DNA of 53,778 nucleotides, filler included, from Stramenopiles sp. TOSAG23-2 (Eukaryota): NCBI GenBank assembly GCA_900128395.1. It is 3 parts of 3 records of this genome, joined end to end, with 100 filler letters (N's around TTAATTAATTAA, not from the genome) between each part and the next. Parts side by side here need not be neighbours in the genome. Positions count along the whole stretch, not along the records: positions 17,973 to 35,843 come from LT649621.1; 2 more parts are not named here. One strand, given 5' to 3'. The notes beneath the pieces were generated by a model. It was not told the origin of the DNA. It was given only the letters and a program-made list of their open reading frames with translations, and made no database searches. Below, in pieces: positions 15,858-46,187 of this stretch. The position numbers and the translations under genes were made by a program. The number at the start of each line of letters is the position of its first letter. Within the stretch, counting starts at the first letter, position 1.

Positions 15858-17872
15858 TCAATCGTCATATCTTCCACTTGAAAACGATTGCTTCTTAACT
15901 TGTTCATCTGTTAAATATTCGTCATTTTTTTCTATGCTGATTCGAACATTAATTAAATGGTGTTTACCATTTGCTTTATTTGCCATCGGTTCCATCCACA
16001 TTTTAAAGCCATTTTTTTTATTCCATTTTTCTTTTATATCGATCCATTTTGCTTCAAAAAGCATATCAGGCCTTTGTCGACGCATGTGTGGAATAAAAAC
16101 ATCAAGGAATTTCATAGCACTACTATATCTTATTTTCCCAATAGAAAGGCCACCAGCACTTTTTAAAATATTTCTTATATCTTCAACTGGTTTATGATCT
16201 AAAATATGACCCCATAGATTATAAACAAAACGTCGATTTGCTTCATTGCCTTTTAATATTTCTACTTGTATTAATCTTGACATTTCTGGAGTGCCTAACG
16301 GTCCCCAATCGATAGATTTTTTAACAACTTTTTTAGTCGATGGCACTAAATTAATAGATGATATGGCACTTTTGACGGAGTTTATTAAATTTTCACTTTG
16401 CTCCGTAGCGCTTTTTATAAGAAAATCACTATGTTCTGTTAACGATTTGCGTTTTTTCACTGTTGATGGAGAAGAATTGGCAGTTTTCGTGGTTTCTTTG
16501 TCATCTTCTTTTTGAAATATTTCGTTTCCAAAAATTGGAGTATTACGCCGTCTATCACCAATAGAATTTGATGCTTTAACATTTCGTATAGGTGACTTGG
16601 TATTATCATTATCTACAGTTTTCATTTGTTTAGAAGGGTCCTCTTGACGCAGTTCTTTTCCTATTTCGTTTTGTTCTTGTTCTATTGATTTTGCAAATGG
16701 ATTTGTTTTTGATAATCGCCTTGTAACTGGTGTTTTTTTCGCATTTGTTGATGGTGGATCATTGTCACTATTATTATTGTTTTCGACTTGATTTCCTACT
16801 ATTACTTTATTGTCATTATTATTTACATCAGTTTCAATATTTACTTCCTCCTTCCCATTGTTCTTTGAATTATCAGTTACTATCTCATTCGGCATTGTAG
16901 TAGGAGATGGACTGTTCCTTGACAACCCCTTTGCTTCTTCCTTATTGTAATCAGGATTATCAACTACGTGATTTAAATCATCATTTTCCATAATGCTATT
17001 TCTACGTTCCGTATTTGTTTCCGCTTTGCGATATTTTTCAATAGCTTTAATTAAAATCCTTTTTTGATTTGTAACTTTTGTCAAACGTTCAGCCATTGTA
17101 CCAAGCTTGGACATAGTATCGTCGTGCTTGTGTTTCCATTTGCTTGCTGTATTTTTCGCAGCTATTAATTCCGCTTCTGCTTGCAAACGCAATGTACGCT
17201 CATATGCCATCGTTTCACGTAATATTTGCGGTTCATTTTCGATCTTTTTGACCATCTCTTCTAGTGATTTAACTTTTGCCTTTAAATCACTTTCGTTTTG
17301 ATTCCCATCTTCAATAGATTGAACAAGTTTCTCTGTTAATTCTTTGATTTGATTTTTATGCAATTCAGTTTCCTCTAAACATATTTCATGTAACCTTTCC
17401 GCTTCCTCCGCACGCATCTCTGCTGCCAACATTTTTTCTGTCGCATTATCACTCTCCTCGCATAAAATGACATTAGCAGATTCTAATCGTACAACTTCTG
17501 TTTGTCTCTGCCTTGCCAGATCCATTGCTTCATCCAGTTCACTGACCAATTCACTATTACGTTGCAATAATCTTTCGATTTCAATATCCGCAGCTCTGTA
17601 TTTGTTCTCATATTCTAATACCTTTTGCTTCCATGCTTCTAATTCTCTTGCATTCTTTGTTTCCTTTGCTGTGAATGTTGTAATTTTCGATTTACCAAAA
17701 CCTTTCACCATGCCAATTTGTACAATTTTATTATCATCAGAGCCATCTAATTCATTACCATCTCCATTATCATTGGTATCATTATCATCAACAACATTTA
17801 TTATATTAAGCATTTTTCCTGGTGCCAATGAATTCCGTTTTCTGGTTGCACGACGACGGCGCACGCTACTAC
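15858..17872 (-). CDS. Coiled-coil protein of unknown function, probably 5'-truncated at the contig end
   Basis: Frame is open up to the gap; first ATG is at 17813. Long E/K/L-rich heptad region, disordered middle and a compact C-terminal domain. Confidence 0.7.
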
Positions 17873-17972
17873 NNNNNNNNNNNNNNNNNNNNNNNNNNNN
17901 NNNNNNNNNNNNNNNNTTAATTAATTAANNNNNNNNNNNNNNNNNNNNNNNNNNNNNNNNNNNNNNNNNNNN
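17873..17972. other. Artificial contig linker (44 N + TTAATTAATTAA + 44 N)
   Basis: Six-frame stop linker at 17917-17928; total length exactly 100 nt. Confidence 0.98.
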
Positions 17973-18444
17973 AATCAAGCATTACTTCTGGCAATGCAAT
18001 ATTCTTCGCTTGTTCATGGTATGCAGACATAATAGCTTCTTTTAAATCATAATGTTGTTGTAAACCATATGTTTCCGCCCACATAATTAATTGTGAACAA
18101 TTTATAGTGGTTCCAATATCACCTTCATATTTAAATGCAATATTAACATCATCTTCCAAACCAATATCAGTAATACGTTTAACCATTGCATTAAAACGCC
18201 CAACATCACCTTTAAACATTTTGATGTAACTTTCACGTTTATCAACATATTTCGTCGGTTCCCTTGCTAAATTTGGACGCAATAACCATGGACGATATCG
18301 TGTTATTACCGGAACATCACCAATATCAATCTGCGATATTGCAGATTCCAATCGACGTTTACCGATAAAGCACCAGGGTCAAGACGCGTCAGAGACAACA
18401 TCCACTATTATATATTCTTTTGGTTGTGTGTTGTTATTTGACAT
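17973..18444 (-). CDS. DsbA/FrnE-like thioredoxin-fold oxidoreductase, probable selenoprotein (UPWC), 3'-truncated
   Basis: ATG at 18444 gives MSNNNTQPKEYIIVDVVSDAS-TGA(18381-18379)-PWCFIGKRRLESAI, in frame with ORF 17917..18351. This matches the FrnE consensus D-V-x-S-D-x-x-C-P-W-C-[FY]-I-G-K-R-R-L. YRPWLLRP, GTTINCSQLIMWA and AYHEQAKNI follow. Confidence 0.88.
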
Positions 18445-18687: not shown

Positions 18688-19626
18688 TTATGAAGATCGA
18701 TTCTTTTTTTTTTTCCATCCACCATCAGCAGCTCCAGGATCATGTTTGAATTTTCGCTTTGTTGCATTACTGTTTGAAGATGCTGTGCCGCTACTACTAC
18801 TGCTACTACTTCCTCCACTTTTTTGTGACCTTGCATTTAAATGTTGTGCTTCAAAATATTGATCAATGATTTTTTTATCTTGCAAAAAACCAGCTGCACG
18901 ATAACGATATGTAATCGATCCAACTTTTCTAATGCGTTTGCTAGTTTGATAAGTGCCAGTCCCTTGATTAACTTCAACACCATCCTGTACATATATATGT
19001 TAGTTATTTCTACTATAAAGAATAGATGAATATATTAATAAATAACTTACACCAAATCTTGTACTAACTTTGTTGACACCATTTAACTTGTCGTCCATAG
19101 GTACTATTGTTCTTTCAGGTACATTACTTGCAGATGCTTGTGAAGCTCCACGTTGTTTGATTTCCATATTAAGAGAATTTTCCCATACGTCAAATTTAAA
19201 TGTTGACAGGTTACGAATGATTCTTTCTGCTTCTGCATCTGAAAATTTTGAACTAGATCCAGATTTACTCTCTTCGCCTGGATCCATCATTGCTAAATCG
19301 AATTCAAAAGGATATTTTTTATTACCATTATATTTTCCGTCCCAGGTCCATGTATGGTTAATTTTCAACGGAGTGGTACTAATCATTGCTTTATCATCAA
19401 TATAAAATATACAACTATACTTCTTATTTGGATCTGCAAAACGATTCAATTTAACGCGTATAGAATATGGGCTAAAACGCATGTAACAAAGAACAGGCAT
19501 GTAGTTCCATTGCTCACGAGTCCTTCTTGCACTTTCAACTCCGGCAGTTCCAACTACTTTTTTTAATGTTTCATTTTCACATACAATCTCAAGGTCGATA
19601 GGTAAGTTATAATTTGTTTGCAACAT
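18688..19626 (-). CDS. Hypothetical protein (~290 aa) in two exons, 19626-19051 and 18984-18688; tentatively DUF7918-like
   Basis: A phase-0 intron joins ORF 19000..19626 to the frame of ORF 18688..18885 (STRFG|DGVEVNQG...ITYRYRAAGFLQDKKII). C-terminal basic NLS-like tail. The family resemblance is from memory and unverified. Confidence 0.75.
18985..19050 (-). other. Spliceosomal intron (66 nt)
   Basis: Minus strand reads GTAAGTT...AACTAAC (branch point)...GTACAG and contains the in-frame stop of the upstream ORF. Confidence 0.88.
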
Positions 19627-25387: not shown

Positions 25388-27121
25388 ATGGCCTCCTTTT
25401 TTGATGATGATAATAATGATAAGACGGATACAACTGCTGATTTCTTTGCTGATTTTACAAGTAATAATACGGAAGAAGAAAGTAATAATAATAATAATAA
25501 GAAAAAAAGCAAAAAATCGAAAAAGAAGAAAAAATCCAATAACGATGATGGATTTTCATCATCCGATACATCATCTTCTTCTTCATCCTCATCATCAGAT
25601 TCTGATGATGATGATGATGCTATATTAGCTCAATTTATGAATAAGGCATTAAAAGCACCAAACGATGAGGTTTCAAAACGACGTGGTGCCAATAAACCAG
25701 TAACAAATAGTCCAACTCAAAAAACATTAACAAAGAAAAACAATGCAGCGCCATCCTCGCCTGTTGTCATGACAGCATTTGGTGTTGTGCAGTATATGCC
25801 ACCATCAGCAACCAAACAAGCTTCTAATAACAAACGTACAGGACATAAATATTCAATATCATTTGATATGAATAGTGAATTGGATATTGTATGGGAAACA
25901 GATTGGCGTGGTAAACTAGTACGAGTGAAACAATTTCGTTTAATAGATTCTTTACCTGGCCCTGCTTCCGACGATGGAAGAATTAAAATTGGACATACAT
26001 TATTAGAAATCAATGGAAAACCTATACCAGATGATTTTCATGAAACTGTTTTGTATTTAAAAACATTAACAAAATCAAAACAACAAATGAAAAATGATGT
26101 ATTAAAAGATGATAATGACAACGACAACAACAACAATAAAAGTAATAATAAAAAGAAAAAGAAGAACAAAAAATCATCTAAATATACATTACGTTTCTTT
26201 TCACCAGATGATGCACCAATCAGTCAAAATGCTCTTGCATTAAAAAGTGTAATGAAGGAAGTACATTTACATAAAATAGCATTGTACAGAGCACAATCAG
26301 AAGGTTTAACAAAAGGATTTATTGAACGATATCGTGGAGATCATATGACAACGTTTCATTTACATCGTGAAAGTGATAATAAATTTATATGTGGTGTTTC
26401 GTGTAAAAAAAATATGCAAGGTGATTTTATTTTTCATACATTAGTTGATATGACATGGGATGCAAAATTGAAAAATATACCAGTACAACCAAGCTCTGCT
26501 ACGTATTTAGGTCGAATGGTGAAAAATTATATGGGTACATCATTTACCTTGCATGATTATCGTGTAACAAATCCACATGATACGATGGCACCGAAACATC
26601 AATTAGCAACAATGGTTTATAAAACAAATGTTAGTGGTGGCGATCCAAATGCATTTACAACTATTTTACCACGATATGATGAAGAATATTTAGAAGGGGA
26701 ACAATTGGAAACGTTGGTCAATCGACATAAATTGTTGAAAAAACGACGAAGTAGTTTAGAGCAAACGATGATGGATAAATTACGCCGTAAAAAAGATTTA
26801 AAATATGGTTCCATTGAACAGCGAGAGGAAGCAGAATTATTAGTATTGCAAACACAAAAACCAGTTTACGATGATCAATTGCAAGCATATACACTTGATT
26901 TTGATGGTCGTGTCAAAATGCCATGTAAGCGTAATTTTATTTTATCCGTAGATCCTGAAAATCAACGTTTAGTCGATGAATTTGGTGAAGGTACGACGTT
27001 ATTACGCCATGGTAAGGTAAATGAAGATCGTTATTGTTTAGATTATCGTTATCCATTAAGTCCAGTCCAAGCATTAGCTATATCATTAACATCGTTTGCT
27101 GATAAATTGTTGGTTACTTGA
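25388..27121 (+). CDS. Tubby-like protein with a PDZ-like domain
   Basis: C-terminal Tubby domain (NYMGTSFTLHD; YTLDFDGRVKMPCKRNF; DYRYPLSPVQALAISLTSF). PDZ-like GPASDDGRIKIGHTLLEING. Low-complexity N-terminus. Confidence 0.88.
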   Translation: MASFFDDDNNDKTDTTADFFADFTSNNTEEESNNNNNKKKSKKSKKKKKSNNDDGFSSSDTSSSSSSSSSDSDDDDDAILAQFMNKALKAPNDEVSKRRGANKPVTNSPTQKTLTKKNNAAPSSPVVMTAFGVVQYMPPSATKQASNNKRTGHKYSISFDMNSELDIVWETDWRGKLVRVKQFRLIDSLPGPASDDGRIKIGHTLLEINGKPIPDDFHETVLYLKTLTKSKQQMKNDVLKDDNDNDNNNNKSNNKKKKKNKKSSKYTLRFFSPDDAPISQNALALKSVMKEVHLHKIALYRAQSEGLTKGFIERYRGDHMTTFHLHRESDNKFICGVSCKKNMQGDFIFHTLVDMTWDAKLKNIPVQPSSATYLGRMVKNYMGTSFTLHDYRVTNPHDTMAPKHQLATMVYKTNVSGGDPNAFTTILPRYDEEYLEGEQLETLVNRHKLLKKRRSSLEQTMMDKLRRKKDLKYGSIEQREEAELLVLQTQKPVYDDQLQAYTLDFDGRVKMPCKRNFILSVDPENQRLVDEFGEGTTLLRHGKVNEDRYCLDYRYPLSPVQALAISLTSFADKLLVT

Positions 27122-40688: not shown

Positions 40689-42722
40689 TTATTCATAAAT
40701 AGGACAAAATGTATTCATTCCTAATGTAAAATCACCAGGGTCATTGAATCGTCTCCCTCTTTCCAAGGAATTAAGTTGATCCATATCCTCTTTCGTTAAA
40801 CTAAAATCCAAAATATCAATATTTTCTTTCATACGATGTACTTTAGTTGATTTAGGAATGATAGACATCTTACGTTCAATACCCCAACGTAATAGCACTT
40901 GTGCAGGCGTTTTACCTTTTGCACTTGCAATCGTTTTTACAACCTCTTCAAGCATACAAGAATCAGTCTTTTTTGCCATATCTAATTCAACATATGAACT
41001 TGAACCAAGCGGCGAAAAACCGGTAACGACAATACCTTCTTCTTCACAGAAACGTACCAATAATTGCTGCTGATTGTATGGATGCAATTCAACTTGTAAA
41101 ACTGCAGGTGGTATTGTACAAAAGGAAAGAATATCACGCAATCCAGCTGTATTAAAGTTACAAACACCAATATTTCTAACTAAACCTTTATTTACTAGAT
41201 TTTCCATAGCTCCCCATGTTTTGTAGACTGGGACAGGAGAAAATTCCATCCTTGGCTGTAATGCTGTAGGATCATGGACCCATTCCGGTGGATATCGTGT
41301 TTCAAATGGTACGAAACGCAAGGAGATTGGAAAGTGTATCAAATATAAATCTAAATATTCAAGACCTAGATCTTCTAAGCTACGACGACATGCTGCTTCT
41401 ACATGTTCAGGCGCATGGTATGTATTCCATAATTTAGATGTAACCCATAGCTCATCACGAGTAACGATACCATCTGCAATAGCCTTAGCAATACCTGCAC
41501 CAACTTCTTTCTCATTGCCATAATCACATGCTTCATCTAAATGCCTGTAACCAATTTTAATAGCATTGTATACAGTATCAGCACATGCATCTTTTGGAAC
41601 TTTCCAGAATCCCATTCCCACAGCAGGCATACGATCGCCAGAGCGTAAGGTACACATTGGCATATTTGTAATAGTACCAGGTACGGTTTTATGATTTTTG
41701 ATTTCAGCTCTTGGGCCGCCTAATGCTGCTAAAATACGACGTGGGCGTTCAAATGTATTTCTGCTATGCATGCAAACACCATTATCGATTACAATAACAT
41801 CGCCTTTTTCCCATTTGAAGCATACACGTGTTTTCATCATAAATGCTTCAATATCTTTCAGCACACTACCTTCTTTTGCAGTTAACATCTCCCCGTTGCC
41901 AAATTGAACAGCTTTTGTTGGATCATTTCGTGAATCTATCCAACCAGTATATGCAGCAACCATTGCATTGATAAACATGGATGTCCCTGTGCGAGGATCT
42001 GTTTTCAATGCTGGCACCATAACAGTAGTAGTTTTTAACTCATCATTTGCTAACCATTCCCATGTGGTACCAATTTTTCTCATTGCATCTTCCGCTTGAT
42101 CCTTCGTTTCGCATAAAAATGTACTTCTCCAGGAACGTCCAATTGCAGAGGTATTATCATCTTCAAATGGCATAACACGGTTATATTGAACACCATGTTT
42201 CAATACTTTTTCAGTAAAATTAGGATGTTTCAACTTCATATACTCAGCCACTTCGTTGCTGAGAATGATAGGAGTTTCACCACCGACTGCTGAAGGGGTT
42301 TCGCAGTAAAACATGACGTATTTAGGAGGGGTGGGACATTGTGCCATTTCATGGTGAAATGGTATTGGTTCAGATGGAGGTGATTCATTTGTCGTAAAAA
42401 CAACATCACGTACAACGTTTGTTCTTGGTGCAGCTCCACCAACATATGGAAATTTCTGTAAATTCAATGAGTCAGCAACGTTAGCAAATTCTTCTGGTGT
42501 TGTCTCTGTCCATCCACGTAGAAGAACAGCGCCATAAGTGAGCGCTTGTTGCAACAATGCATCACGATTACTTTTCACATAATCAATTAAATGTGAAGTT
42601 GGTAAATTTTTCTCGACTGGTGATAATGCCAAAGGAAATGGCCTTCCTGATTTTGCGGAAAGTTTTTGACCTTGAATTGCTACACGTTCAACAGCTGAAG
42701 CCATTTTAACAACAGATGCCAT
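40689..42722 (-). CDS. Fusion of a TauD/clavaminate-synthase-like Fe(II)/2OG dioxygenase and an aldo-keto reductase (xylose-reductase-like)
   Basis: N-half: GAVLLRG, YVGGAAPR, TTNESPP..IPFHHEMA, GGETPI, WEKGDVIVIDN..MHSR. C-half: GYRHLDEACDYGNE, TSKLWNT, YLIHFP, QVELHPY, IIPKS. Confidence 0.92.
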   Translation of the reverse strand: MASVVKMASAVERVAIQGQKLSAKSGRPFPLALSPVEKNLPTSHLIDYVKSNRDALLQQALTYGAVLLRGWTETTPEEFANVADSLNLQKFPYVGGAAPRTNVVRDVVFTTNESPPSEPIPFHHEMAQCPTPPKYVMFYCETPSAVGGETPIILSNEVAEYMKLKHPNFTEKVLKHGVQYNRVMPFEDDNTSAIGRSWRSTFLCETKDQAEDAMRKIGTTWEWLANDELKTTTVMVPALKTDPRTGTSMFINAMVAAYTGWIDSRNDPTKAVQFGNGEMLTAKEGSVLKDIEAFMMKTRVCFKWEKGDVIVIDNGVCMHSRNTFERPRRILAALGGPRAEIKNHKTVPGTITNMPMCTLRSGDRMPAVGMGFWKVPKDACADTVYNAIKIGYRHLDEACDYGNEKEVGAGIAKAIADGIVTRDELWVTSKLWNTYHAPEHVEAACRRSLEDLGLEYLDLYLIHFPISLRFVPFETRYPPEWVHDPTALQPRMEFSPVPVYKTWGAMENLVNKGLVRNIGVCNFNTAGLRDILSFCTIPPAVLQVELHPYNQQQLLVRFCEEEGIVVTGFSPLGSSSYVELDMAKKTDSCMLEEVVKTIASAKGKTPAQVLLRWGIERKMSIIPKSTKVHRMKENIDILDFSLTKEDMDQLNSLERGRRFNDPGDFTLGMNTFCPIYE

Positions 42723-44840: not shown

Positions 44841-46187
44841 ATGCAATATCAAAATATGTTCATATCAATTTCAAACTTGTATATGTTATTCATAATAATA
44901 ATAATCATTTGCATGGCAAATAATATATTTATCACTGCACATACTATAAAGGGTCATACGAAACAATGCGTAGATGAGTTTTATCCTATATTAATACCAA
45001 CTGCTGGAACAAAAGAATCAAAAATAGCAGAGGAAAGTCAAGTATGTAAAGTTATTCACTTTATTCGTCACGCAGAAGGATTTCACAATGTAGCAGATAG
45101 GAAACATGGGACAGATATATTAAAATTTGAAAACTCTGGTAATAATTTTACCGATGCAAAATTAACAGAAAATGGTATACGTCAATCACAAGCTTTAAAA
45201 AAACGAATCCAAAATCCGAAGGGATCATATGCAAAATGGACTATTGTGAATAAAGTGACGGAAAATTTCAAAGAGAGATATTTAGATATCGATGCTATTG
45301 TCACGTCAACACTGTCCCGTGCGATAGAAACGGCATTTTATGGTTTGCCAGTGAGTAAAAAGACTATCCATATAGCAACTGAATTGGGCCGTGAACGCGT
45401 AGCTGAATATATGTGTGAAAAAAGAAGAAATTTATCTGAAATTGAGAATGATTATCCATTTGTTCAAATTAAACATGCAACATCAGAAGAAGATGATCGA
45501 TTTGATGAGAAAGAAACTGAAGATGATTTATTAAAAGCACGAATTCGAGCTCGAAAATTTTTGAAATGGTTATTATTTGAAATGGCTGGAACAAAATTTG
45601 CTTATGTTTCTCATTTTGAATTTCTTCAATTAATTTTTGATGATTTCTTCAAAAAAGTAGATAATCGTCGTGCAGCATTTCGTGATAAAGCTAGAGGTGA
45701 GGATCAAATTTTTCCTTGGATTTTTGAATTTCGTAATGCACAGATTCAGCCAGCTTATTTGTGCCCTTCAAATCTAATTGAAGATCAAATATTGTGTTTG
45801 AATGATGAAGCACAAGTGAAATATGAAATTGATCAAATTCAGAAGAATGGTCCAATTTTTAGTAAAAAATCCCCACAACAATATAAAGGAAAGGCAGGTT
45901 CGCATGCTCCACTGGCATTTCAATCCATAAAAACACGAGAGATAACCGTCAAAGTTGAGCATGGAATGTCAGATGAACATTTTATTGAATATGTATACTT
46001 GCGTGATGTAAAAACGAAAGAAATAGTGGCATTTAAAAAATTTTCAAAGGAAATGGCAAATGATAAAAATTTGCATCAACCTATTTTAAAATTTATGCCT
46101 GAAAAAGAAACAGAAGGAAGAGTCAGGCCGTATGCATATTGCAACAAACATGGATTGTGGAAAGGGCCTGCGATTTCATATCTGTAA
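44841..46187 (+). CDS. Secreted histidine phosphatase (PGM/PMU1-like) fused to a superoxide reductase (desulfoferrodoxin Fe-binding) domain
   Basis: Hydrophobic N-terminal signal. HFIRHAEGFHN, DAKLTENGIRQ, TSTLSRAIET, RER...CEKRR and VSH. C-terminal SHAP...HGMSDEHFIEYVY...YAYCNKHGLW. Confidence 0.87.
   Translation: MQYQNMFISISNLYMLFIIIIIICMANNIFITAHTIKGHTKQCVDEFYPILIPTAGTKESKIAEESQVCKVIHFIRHAEGFHNVADRKHGTDILKFENSGNNFTDAKLTENGIRQSQALKKRIQNPKGSYAKWTIVNKVTENFKERYLDIDAIVTSTLSRAIETAFYGLPVSKKTIHIATELGRERVAEYMCEKRRNLSEIENDYPFVQIKHATSEEDDRFDEKETEDDLLKARIRARKFLKWLLFEMAGTKFAYVSHFEFLQLIFDDFFKKVDNRRAAFRDKARGEDQIFPWIFEFRNAQIQPAYLCPSNLIEDQILCLNDEAQVKYEIDQIQKNGPIFSKKSPQQYKGKAGSHAPLAFQSIKTREITVKVEHGMSDEHFIEYVYLRDVKTKEIVAFKKFSKEMANDKNLHQPILKFMPEKETEGRVRPYAYCNKHGLWKGPAISYL

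Follow-up and report, generated by a model that had tools for sequence, protein, structure and literature searches.

The window considered here, a stretch of 53,778 nucleotides from the genome of Stramenopiles sp. TOSAG23-2 (GCA_900128395.1), is AT-rich and carries genes of eukaryotic type with few introns. Its minus strand contains the 5' portion of a FrnE-type gene of the DSBA family (Table 1), whose reading frame starts at ATG 18444, the first ATG downstream of an in-frame stop located 11 codons further upstream, and extends through 157 codons up to the contig end at 17973. Translation of this strand from 18444 to 17974 yields MSNNNTQPKEYIIVDVVSDAS*PWCFIGKRRLE..., in which the sole in-frame stop is the TGA at codon 22 (18381-18379), and this codon aligns with the first cysteine of the CPWC motif in Deinococcus FrnE (5cnw; E 1.1e-9). 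The translation and the alignment bear out the original prediction, which had placed a recoded TGA at exactly this point, and had further stated that family similarity continues on both sides of the codon and that the ORF track misses the gene. The Pfam DSBA profile (PF01323, cut-off 25.6) indeed matches residues 14-154 across the TGA, with 42.2 bits when Cys is placed at codon 22 and 34.5 bits with X in its stead, and the ORF track begins only at TTG 18351. As judged by eye, the N-terminus has no export signal: it is polar, the first strand begins at residue 10, and an in-frame stop lies upstream. No match for the FrnE-type protein was obtained in NCBIfam, and the ESM Atlas returned only generic DSBA clusters.

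Table 1. Features discussed in the text, in window positions unless a contig is named
Feature	Position	Strand	Remarks
FrnE-type DSBA-family gene, 5' 157 codons	17974..18444	-	cut by contig end
In-frame TGA, codon 22, putative selenocysteine	18379..18381	-	just before helix 23-38 of the DsbA-type fold in the model
Cys25 (TGC), putative resolving cysteine of U-P-W-C	18370..18372	-	
GT..AG stretch, 26 nt	18331..18356	-	with out-of-frame ATG 18401 gives the N-terminus of P0011; judged a mis-prediction
Assembly linker between contigs C1414 and C1415 (unlinked)	17873..17972	.	N44-TTAATTAATTAA-N44
Canonical Sec-FrnE paralogue (L002)	C1824 1276-1935	-	220 aa, DTV-U-PWC, SECIS-like hairpin
Third TGA-bearing DSBA-like gene (L010)	C5539	-	C-T-Q-U-P-H-G, TGA at the same position

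The linker begins where the contig ends, and the last 90 codons of the gene are absent along with its 3' UTR; the full length of 247 aa is that of the near-identical public protein P0019. The original prediction had warned that the SECIS would be out of sight for this very reason, and it is absent from the assembly and was not recovered. The 3' end was not found in the organism's own genome, whether searched with the protein or with a back-translated pattern allowing 2 mismatches, and a metagenome scan with the family alignment confirmed none of its 159 candidates; contigs from public runs extend 41-311 nt beyond the contig end. The neighboring ORFs at 19000-19626 and 15858-17813 are without a Pfam match, the latter lying on another, unlinked contig. 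Elsewhere in the window, the segment at 1-1700 stands apart in composition, with 51% GC in the first 1 kb versus about 33% in the remainder, and a TPR-like ORF (269-1603) in this GC-rich start shares the deviant composition, such that a chimeric join or a recent insertion is possible. Two further ORFs display domain architectures assigned by eye: a 677-aa ORF (40689-42722, minus strand) combining a TauD/TfdA-type dioxygenase with an aldo-keto reductase, and a 448-aa ORF (44841-46187, plus strand) joining a desulfoferrodoxin-like domain (YCNKHGLW) at its C-terminus to a histidine phosphatase.

The AlphaFold model of P0019 (pLDDT 92.5; built with W at position 22) places the protein with FrnE. 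The top five Foldseek hits are all FrnE structures (E 1.8e-13, TM 0.75-0.79), with kappa GST lower (E 3.8e-7) and the DsbA structures far below FrnE. The only cysteines of P0019 are at positions 25, 116 and 158, and the C-terminal CxxxxC of FrnE is absent. According to passages of PMC8945050, Deinococcus FrnE is regenerated via this motif, which is present in many members and missing from some; because named FrnE proteins thus lack it, its absence is no bar to membership in the family.

The genome encodes two additional TGA-bearing proteins of the DSBA family. The first, on C1824, shows 36% identity to the window protein, lacks a PTS1 tail and groups in our tree with other untagged UPWC genes. 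The second, on C5539, has a hydrophobic N-terminus and a Cys three residues ahead of the Sec, with none behind it; C1116 carries a fragment of a close paralogue of this gene. The pattern U-P-W-C-[FY]-x-[GA]-K-R recovers at least 120 metagenome loci. Among the matches listed, 60 loci retain a complete frame of at least 190 residues after the TGA, just one of these 60 full-length genes has a PTS1 ending, and the closest of them to the window protein shows 35% identity. One such UPWC gene (L077), on a GC-rich metagenome contig of another lineage, ends in ARL.

A type 1 peroxisomal targeting signal (PTS1) conforms to the C-terminal consensus [SAC][KRH][LM]. As the window and the assembly stop before the C-terminus of the gene, the tail was read from public proteins, namely P0018, which matches the window protein at every position from 33 to 157, and P0019, which differs from it at 3 of 157 positions; both end in HETDASKL. 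Among the 37 close public homologues (P0002-P0038) 34 end in SKL or AKL, and the remaining three are fragments or carry a frameshift. The residues ahead of the tripeptide vary (HETDA, QQENV, CETTET), and orthologues at 70-79% identity likewise end in AKL or SKL with differing upstream residues. However, the 37 homologues collapse into 7 clusters, 33 of them falling in three, and hence represent few independent events. Among the window's 21 long ORFs, no ending of the SKL/AKL type occurs. The genome contains a Pex14 gene, and in another stramenopile, Nannochloropsis, SKL sends a reporter to small punctate organelles taken as the peroxisome marker, as reported in a section of PMC7710942. It is therefore likely that the full-length protein is imported by Pex5/Pex14 through a PTS1.

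Trees were built with 178 and with 49 sequences. Proteins shorter than 170 aa and the chimeric P0041 were left out, so that 117 of 151 were retained, and the paralogue was added. The tree of 49 took in the whole 23-member group along with 14 selected and 12 randomly drawn others, its sequences having been stripped of their last three residues. The chimeric-looking P0008, P0041 and P0211 were not relied on alone. The 23-member group of the window protein contains 13 canonical PTS1 endings and 5 near matches, versus 4 and 4 among the other 155 sequences, a contrast to be read with the caveats that the outside set is rich in bacterial proteins and that the search profile itself ended in SKL. The corresponding Fisher p of 1e-10 counts related sequences as independent and does not represent a probability. 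The named members of the tailed group come from two choanoflagellates and one dinoflagellate; most members have CPWC, and L077 is the member with UPWC and ARL. The target with two orthologue clusters receives an ultrafast bootstrap of 100, as it does when the Cys-type sister is added, and a group of 12 around L077 receives 89. The tail-bearing group as a whole (22-23 members) has FastTree values of 0.845 and 0.975 and is also present in the IQ-TREE consensus with an ultrafast bootstrap of 28; in a fast tree it has 21 members and an SH-aLRT of 41. Given the low value for this union, we make no claim of a single origin of the group, nor of the direction of change between Sec and Cys. The sister cluster (P0039/P0188 and P0042), which includes an entry labelled Stramenopile MAST-4, shows 43-44% identity to the window protein and differs from it in having CPWC, an N-terminal GNAT-like domain and no canonical PTS1. 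P0039, P0042, P0187 and P0188 are all fusions of such a domain (named GNAT-like in the source) with a Cys-type FrnE, and P0039 ends in GGNL. Alongside the metagenome loci that carry TGA-PWC, this CPWC sister group supplies TGA/Cys pairs among relatives, for which the original prediction had proposed to look.

The foremost alternative is that a Sec-FrnE functions mainly in the cytosol as a copy of the known Sec-DsbA, its SKL tail being weak, partly used or incidental. The sister group without a canonical PTS1 is in line with this, and so are the partly acidic residues preceding SKL in P0018 and P0019, as acidic residues ahead of the tripeptide weaken a PTS1. Bacterial FrnE is likewise cytoplasmic, as stated in part of PMC8945050. 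We nevertheless regard this alternative as unlikely: SKL/AKL is retained in orthologues of 70-98% identity despite the differing residues before it, and canonical PTS1 endings are concentrated in the target's part of the tree, with the above reservations concerning the bacteria-rich outside set and the SKL-ended profile. Another possibility is that the protein is peroxisomal and behaves as a glutathione-dependent glutaredoxin or peroxidase in the manner of kappa GST, rather than as a protein disulfide reductase or isomerase. Kappa GST has the same fold, a PTS1 and, according to sections of PMC10295636, glutaredoxin-like activity in peroxisomes, and the absence of the FrnE CxxxxC from P0019 would also fit. 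This appears improbable, however, since the dithiol-type motif U-P-W-C is preserved at the site of kappa GST's S-x-x-S, and both structure and sequence are far nearer to FrnE. Moreover, Ser-type or otherwise divergent genes of the DSBA family exist separately in the genome, among which those on C1429 (L009) and C2386 (L006) lack CxxC, are kappa-GST/HCCA-isomerase-like by eye, and end in SRL and SKM, respectively.

Of 24 listed public runs, 20 contain parts of the stretch, and these are marine or carry no label; X21-X24 have almost none of it. Four of the 20 (X1, X2, X15 and X17) were compared in regard to the TGA, a contig being considered as bridging if it has 31 letters on both sides of the codon. 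A DNA contig of 787 nt from X2 (one of the four runs) bridges it, its shorter flank being 67 nt, and agrees at the codon; as this contig spans the codon unchanged, the TGA is not a sequencing error. Codon 22 is also contained in contigs from X1 and from the poly(A) run X15, near their ends (3 nt past the codon, or 24 nt on one side); that of X17 stops before it. Across the four runs there are 7 coding differences, 6 synonymous and one E62D, and of 14 indels the 12 that are listed all lie upstream of the ATG. No disabling change besides the TGA was seen in the frame, and the pseudogene that the original prediction had entertained as a refutation thus finds no further sign in the sequence.

The position equivalent to codon 22 is unaligned in 36 of the 37 close public homologues and W in one (P0019), with Cys in none; most simply, this W is a TGA read by table 4. 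The truncated starts of P0003, P0007, P0040, P0123, P0134 and P0175 fit a TGA at codon 22, though their agreement goes no further than such a fit. In public catalogues the gene is thus truncated or mis-spliced, with the correct residue 22 in 0 of the 37 close entries. One of them, P0011, relates to the single point on which the original prediction was mistaken: it had seen no splice sites around the TGA, yet a 26-nt GT..AG pair (18356-18331) combined with ATG 18401 offers a gene model that dodges the codon. We reject this model because it discards the conserved DVVSD-x-x-x-PWCFIGKRRL motif and, more weakly, because the X15 RNA contig runs through 18356-18331 without a gap or joint, although just 28 nt of this contig lie beyond the stretch. 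Apart from this bypass, the TGA might go untranslated as the true stop of a pseudogene or by virtue of a downstream start. P0011 does carry the bypass N-terminus, the SECIS of the gene is unseen, and no RNA contig bridges the TGA by 31 letters on both sides; but the changes flanking the codon are synonymous in the TGA frame, and the paralogue and the at least 120 pattern matches have a TGA at the same position, making an untranslated TGA very improbable. Least credible is that a variant code or a suppressor tRNA inserts Trp or Cys at UGA, which the W in P0019 might suggest, as TGA terminates 4 of the window's 21 long ATG ORFs (25388-27121 among them, the kind of ordinary stop to which the original prediction had pointed) and Trp is written TGG 157 times in them, so that TGA is not globally reassigned, while a tRNA-Sec with dedicated factors is present and Trp at 22 would abolish the nucleophile.

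Decoding of this TGA as selenocysteine is in keeping with the machinery detected in the genome, which the original prediction had expected. There are three identical tRNA-Sec genes of 86 nt with anticodon TCA (64.4 bits; Rfam cut-off 47), located on C1254 and C7545, two of them in tandem 179 nt apart. SepSecS, eEFSec and selenophosphate synthetase (SPS) all score above their own cut-offs, and a PSTK-like gene scores below its curated cut-off. An SBP2-like gene has a frame of 1,029 codons in which a Lys-rich motif, taken here as the SBP2-like feature, comes before an L7Ae domain. The genome is a bin, and these genes are tied to the FrnE-type gene by the bin only. Several of the machinery genes have unusual architectures: the PSTK-like frame (C692, L146) runs about 500 residues past the kinase match; the SBP2-like frame (C722, L152) continues into a C-terminal methyltransferase-like region, as a fusion or two adjacent genes; and the selenophosphate synthetase (C1626, L148) is of the Cys type and fused to an N-terminal FAD-oxidoreductase-like domain, named by eye.

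The Rfam SECIS_1 model (RF00031) has no match in the whole genome, and no Rfam family matches within the window. Our own SECIS pattern matched in 5 of the 17 UTRs tried. The best of these, 73 nt past the stop of the C1824 paralogue, is a hairpin with ATGAT, 11/11 pairs, an AAAA and a TGAG, and an apical part of 41 nt; 0 of 200 shuffles equal it, although the fold of the region differs little from shuffles (z -0.35). The corresponding counts are 1/200 for L071, 2/200 for L083, 7/200 for L074 and 21/200 for the C5539 gene, whose hairpin is weak (9/11 pairs). The pattern misses the UTR of L077, where a SECIS-like hairpin of the form AUGAC..UGAC was picked by eye and folds no better than shuffles (z 0.05). 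Considering the codon and the machinery, we are nearly certain that UGA22 is recoded to selenocysteine by a SECIS in the 3' UTR.

On the basis of these observations, we propose that a 3' UTR SECIS would recode UGA22, and that the resulting Sec22, at the start of helix 1, would attack a substrate disulfide. Cys25 would then resolve the adduct into a selenenyl-sulfide, the selenium counterpart of the sulfur chemistry carried out by the CPWC of FrnE; by analogy with FrnE, this division of labor between the two residues is very likely. Pex5 and Pex14 would import the full-length protein via its PTS1, and within the H2O2-rich peroxisome the enzyme might reduce or reshuffle oxidised protein thiols, or strip glutathione off them. 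Since the C-terminal CxxxxC relay of Deinococcus FrnE is absent, glutathione or a partner would re-reduce the enzyme. For this predicted peroxisomal thiol repair, with its mode of re-reduction, the chances seem evenly balanced. Its cytosolic counterpart would be the canonical paralogue on C1824, which bears no tag. Overall, with location and activity being predictions from sequence, the gene product is probably a peroxisome-imported FrnE-type selenoprotein of 247 residues, a DsbA-family member of the thioredoxin fold.

We also lean, if less strongly, toward the view that marine protists keep a dedicated peroxisomal FrnE-type disulfide reductase with selenocysteine. Sec would then occur in at least two separate lineages, those of the window gene and of L077; the tailed relatives, which come from choanoflagellates, a dinoflagellate and uncultured protists, are mostly of the Cys type. 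If true, the enzyme would be the dithiol catalyst by which oxidised proteins are recovered within peroxisomes, and would belong to a small selenoproteome of that organelle. The repair of oxidised thiols in peroxisomes is described as an open question in passages of PMC10295636, which also note, for mammals, that no peroxisomal glutaredoxin or glutathione peroxidase has been pinned down in molecular terms; tailed FrnE is a candidate for this role. In its Cys and Sec forms, the tailed group further provides an expressible candidate and a natural Sec/Cys comparison. We found no peroxisomal selenoprotein, or selenoprotein with a PTS1, in the open-licence literature, which does not establish its absence from print, and a passage of PMC11303474 on this subject concerns catalase. 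In the same literature no MAST-4 selenoprotein was found, and the words 'DsbA' and 'seleno' are absent from the main text, as available, of the protist-peroxisome papers PMC7710942 and PMC9244630.

Comparison with known systems relates the protein to several groups. The closest match in sequence and fold is FrnE, represented by Deinococcus radiodurans DR_0659 (5cnw, 5cp1) and SCO1869 (3gl5), with which it shares a CP(W/F)C-type motif, the lack of a signal peptide and a GVP loop (200-202 of P0019). It differs in having Sec for the first Cys, in lacking the CxxxxC relay, in being eukaryotic and in the PTS1. In parts of PMC8945050, Deinococcus FrnE is portrayed as a disulfide reductase/isomerase of the cytoplasm, and the corresponding mutant as sensitive to both cadmium and diamide. 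Exported DsbA oxidases, in contrast, have an N-terminal signal peptide, which the window protein lacks. Kappa GST (GSTK1/DsbA-L), the known peroxisomal representative of the same Pfam family, has, as described in sections of PMC10295636, a proposed role in the recovery of peroxisomal thiols after oxidation, but it has no active-site Cys and shows 12% identity to the window protein in the structural alignment. Finally, by every feature examined in the sequence (domain, TGA at the Cys, selection and machinery) the gene is a member of the Sec-DsbA family. Portions of the literature record this family (PF01323, UxxC) in marine metagenomes (PMC2398784), in Micromonas, Ciona and amphioxus (PMC2874816), in marine invertebrates (PMC3473315) and in algae, where it counts among the most widespread selenoproteins (PMC7539508), in agreement with the original prediction that such proteins occur in marine algae and bacteria. 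Its reading of the gene as a selenoprotein is thus supported, yet not new, as Sec-DsbA is a catalogued family; the C-terminal SKL and the paralogues lay outside its view. Members of the PTS1-tailed branch may already be listed in the supplement of PMC7539508, in whose main text, as available, the string 'peroxisom' is absent. Like the catalogued Sec-DsbA proteins, the gene has a DSBA domain, Sec for the first Cys of CxxC, mis-annotated first codons and a marine provenance, and as such would be ordinary; unlike them, it represents a divergent branch with a conserved C-terminal PTS1, and it is this peroxisomal tail that gives it its added interest.
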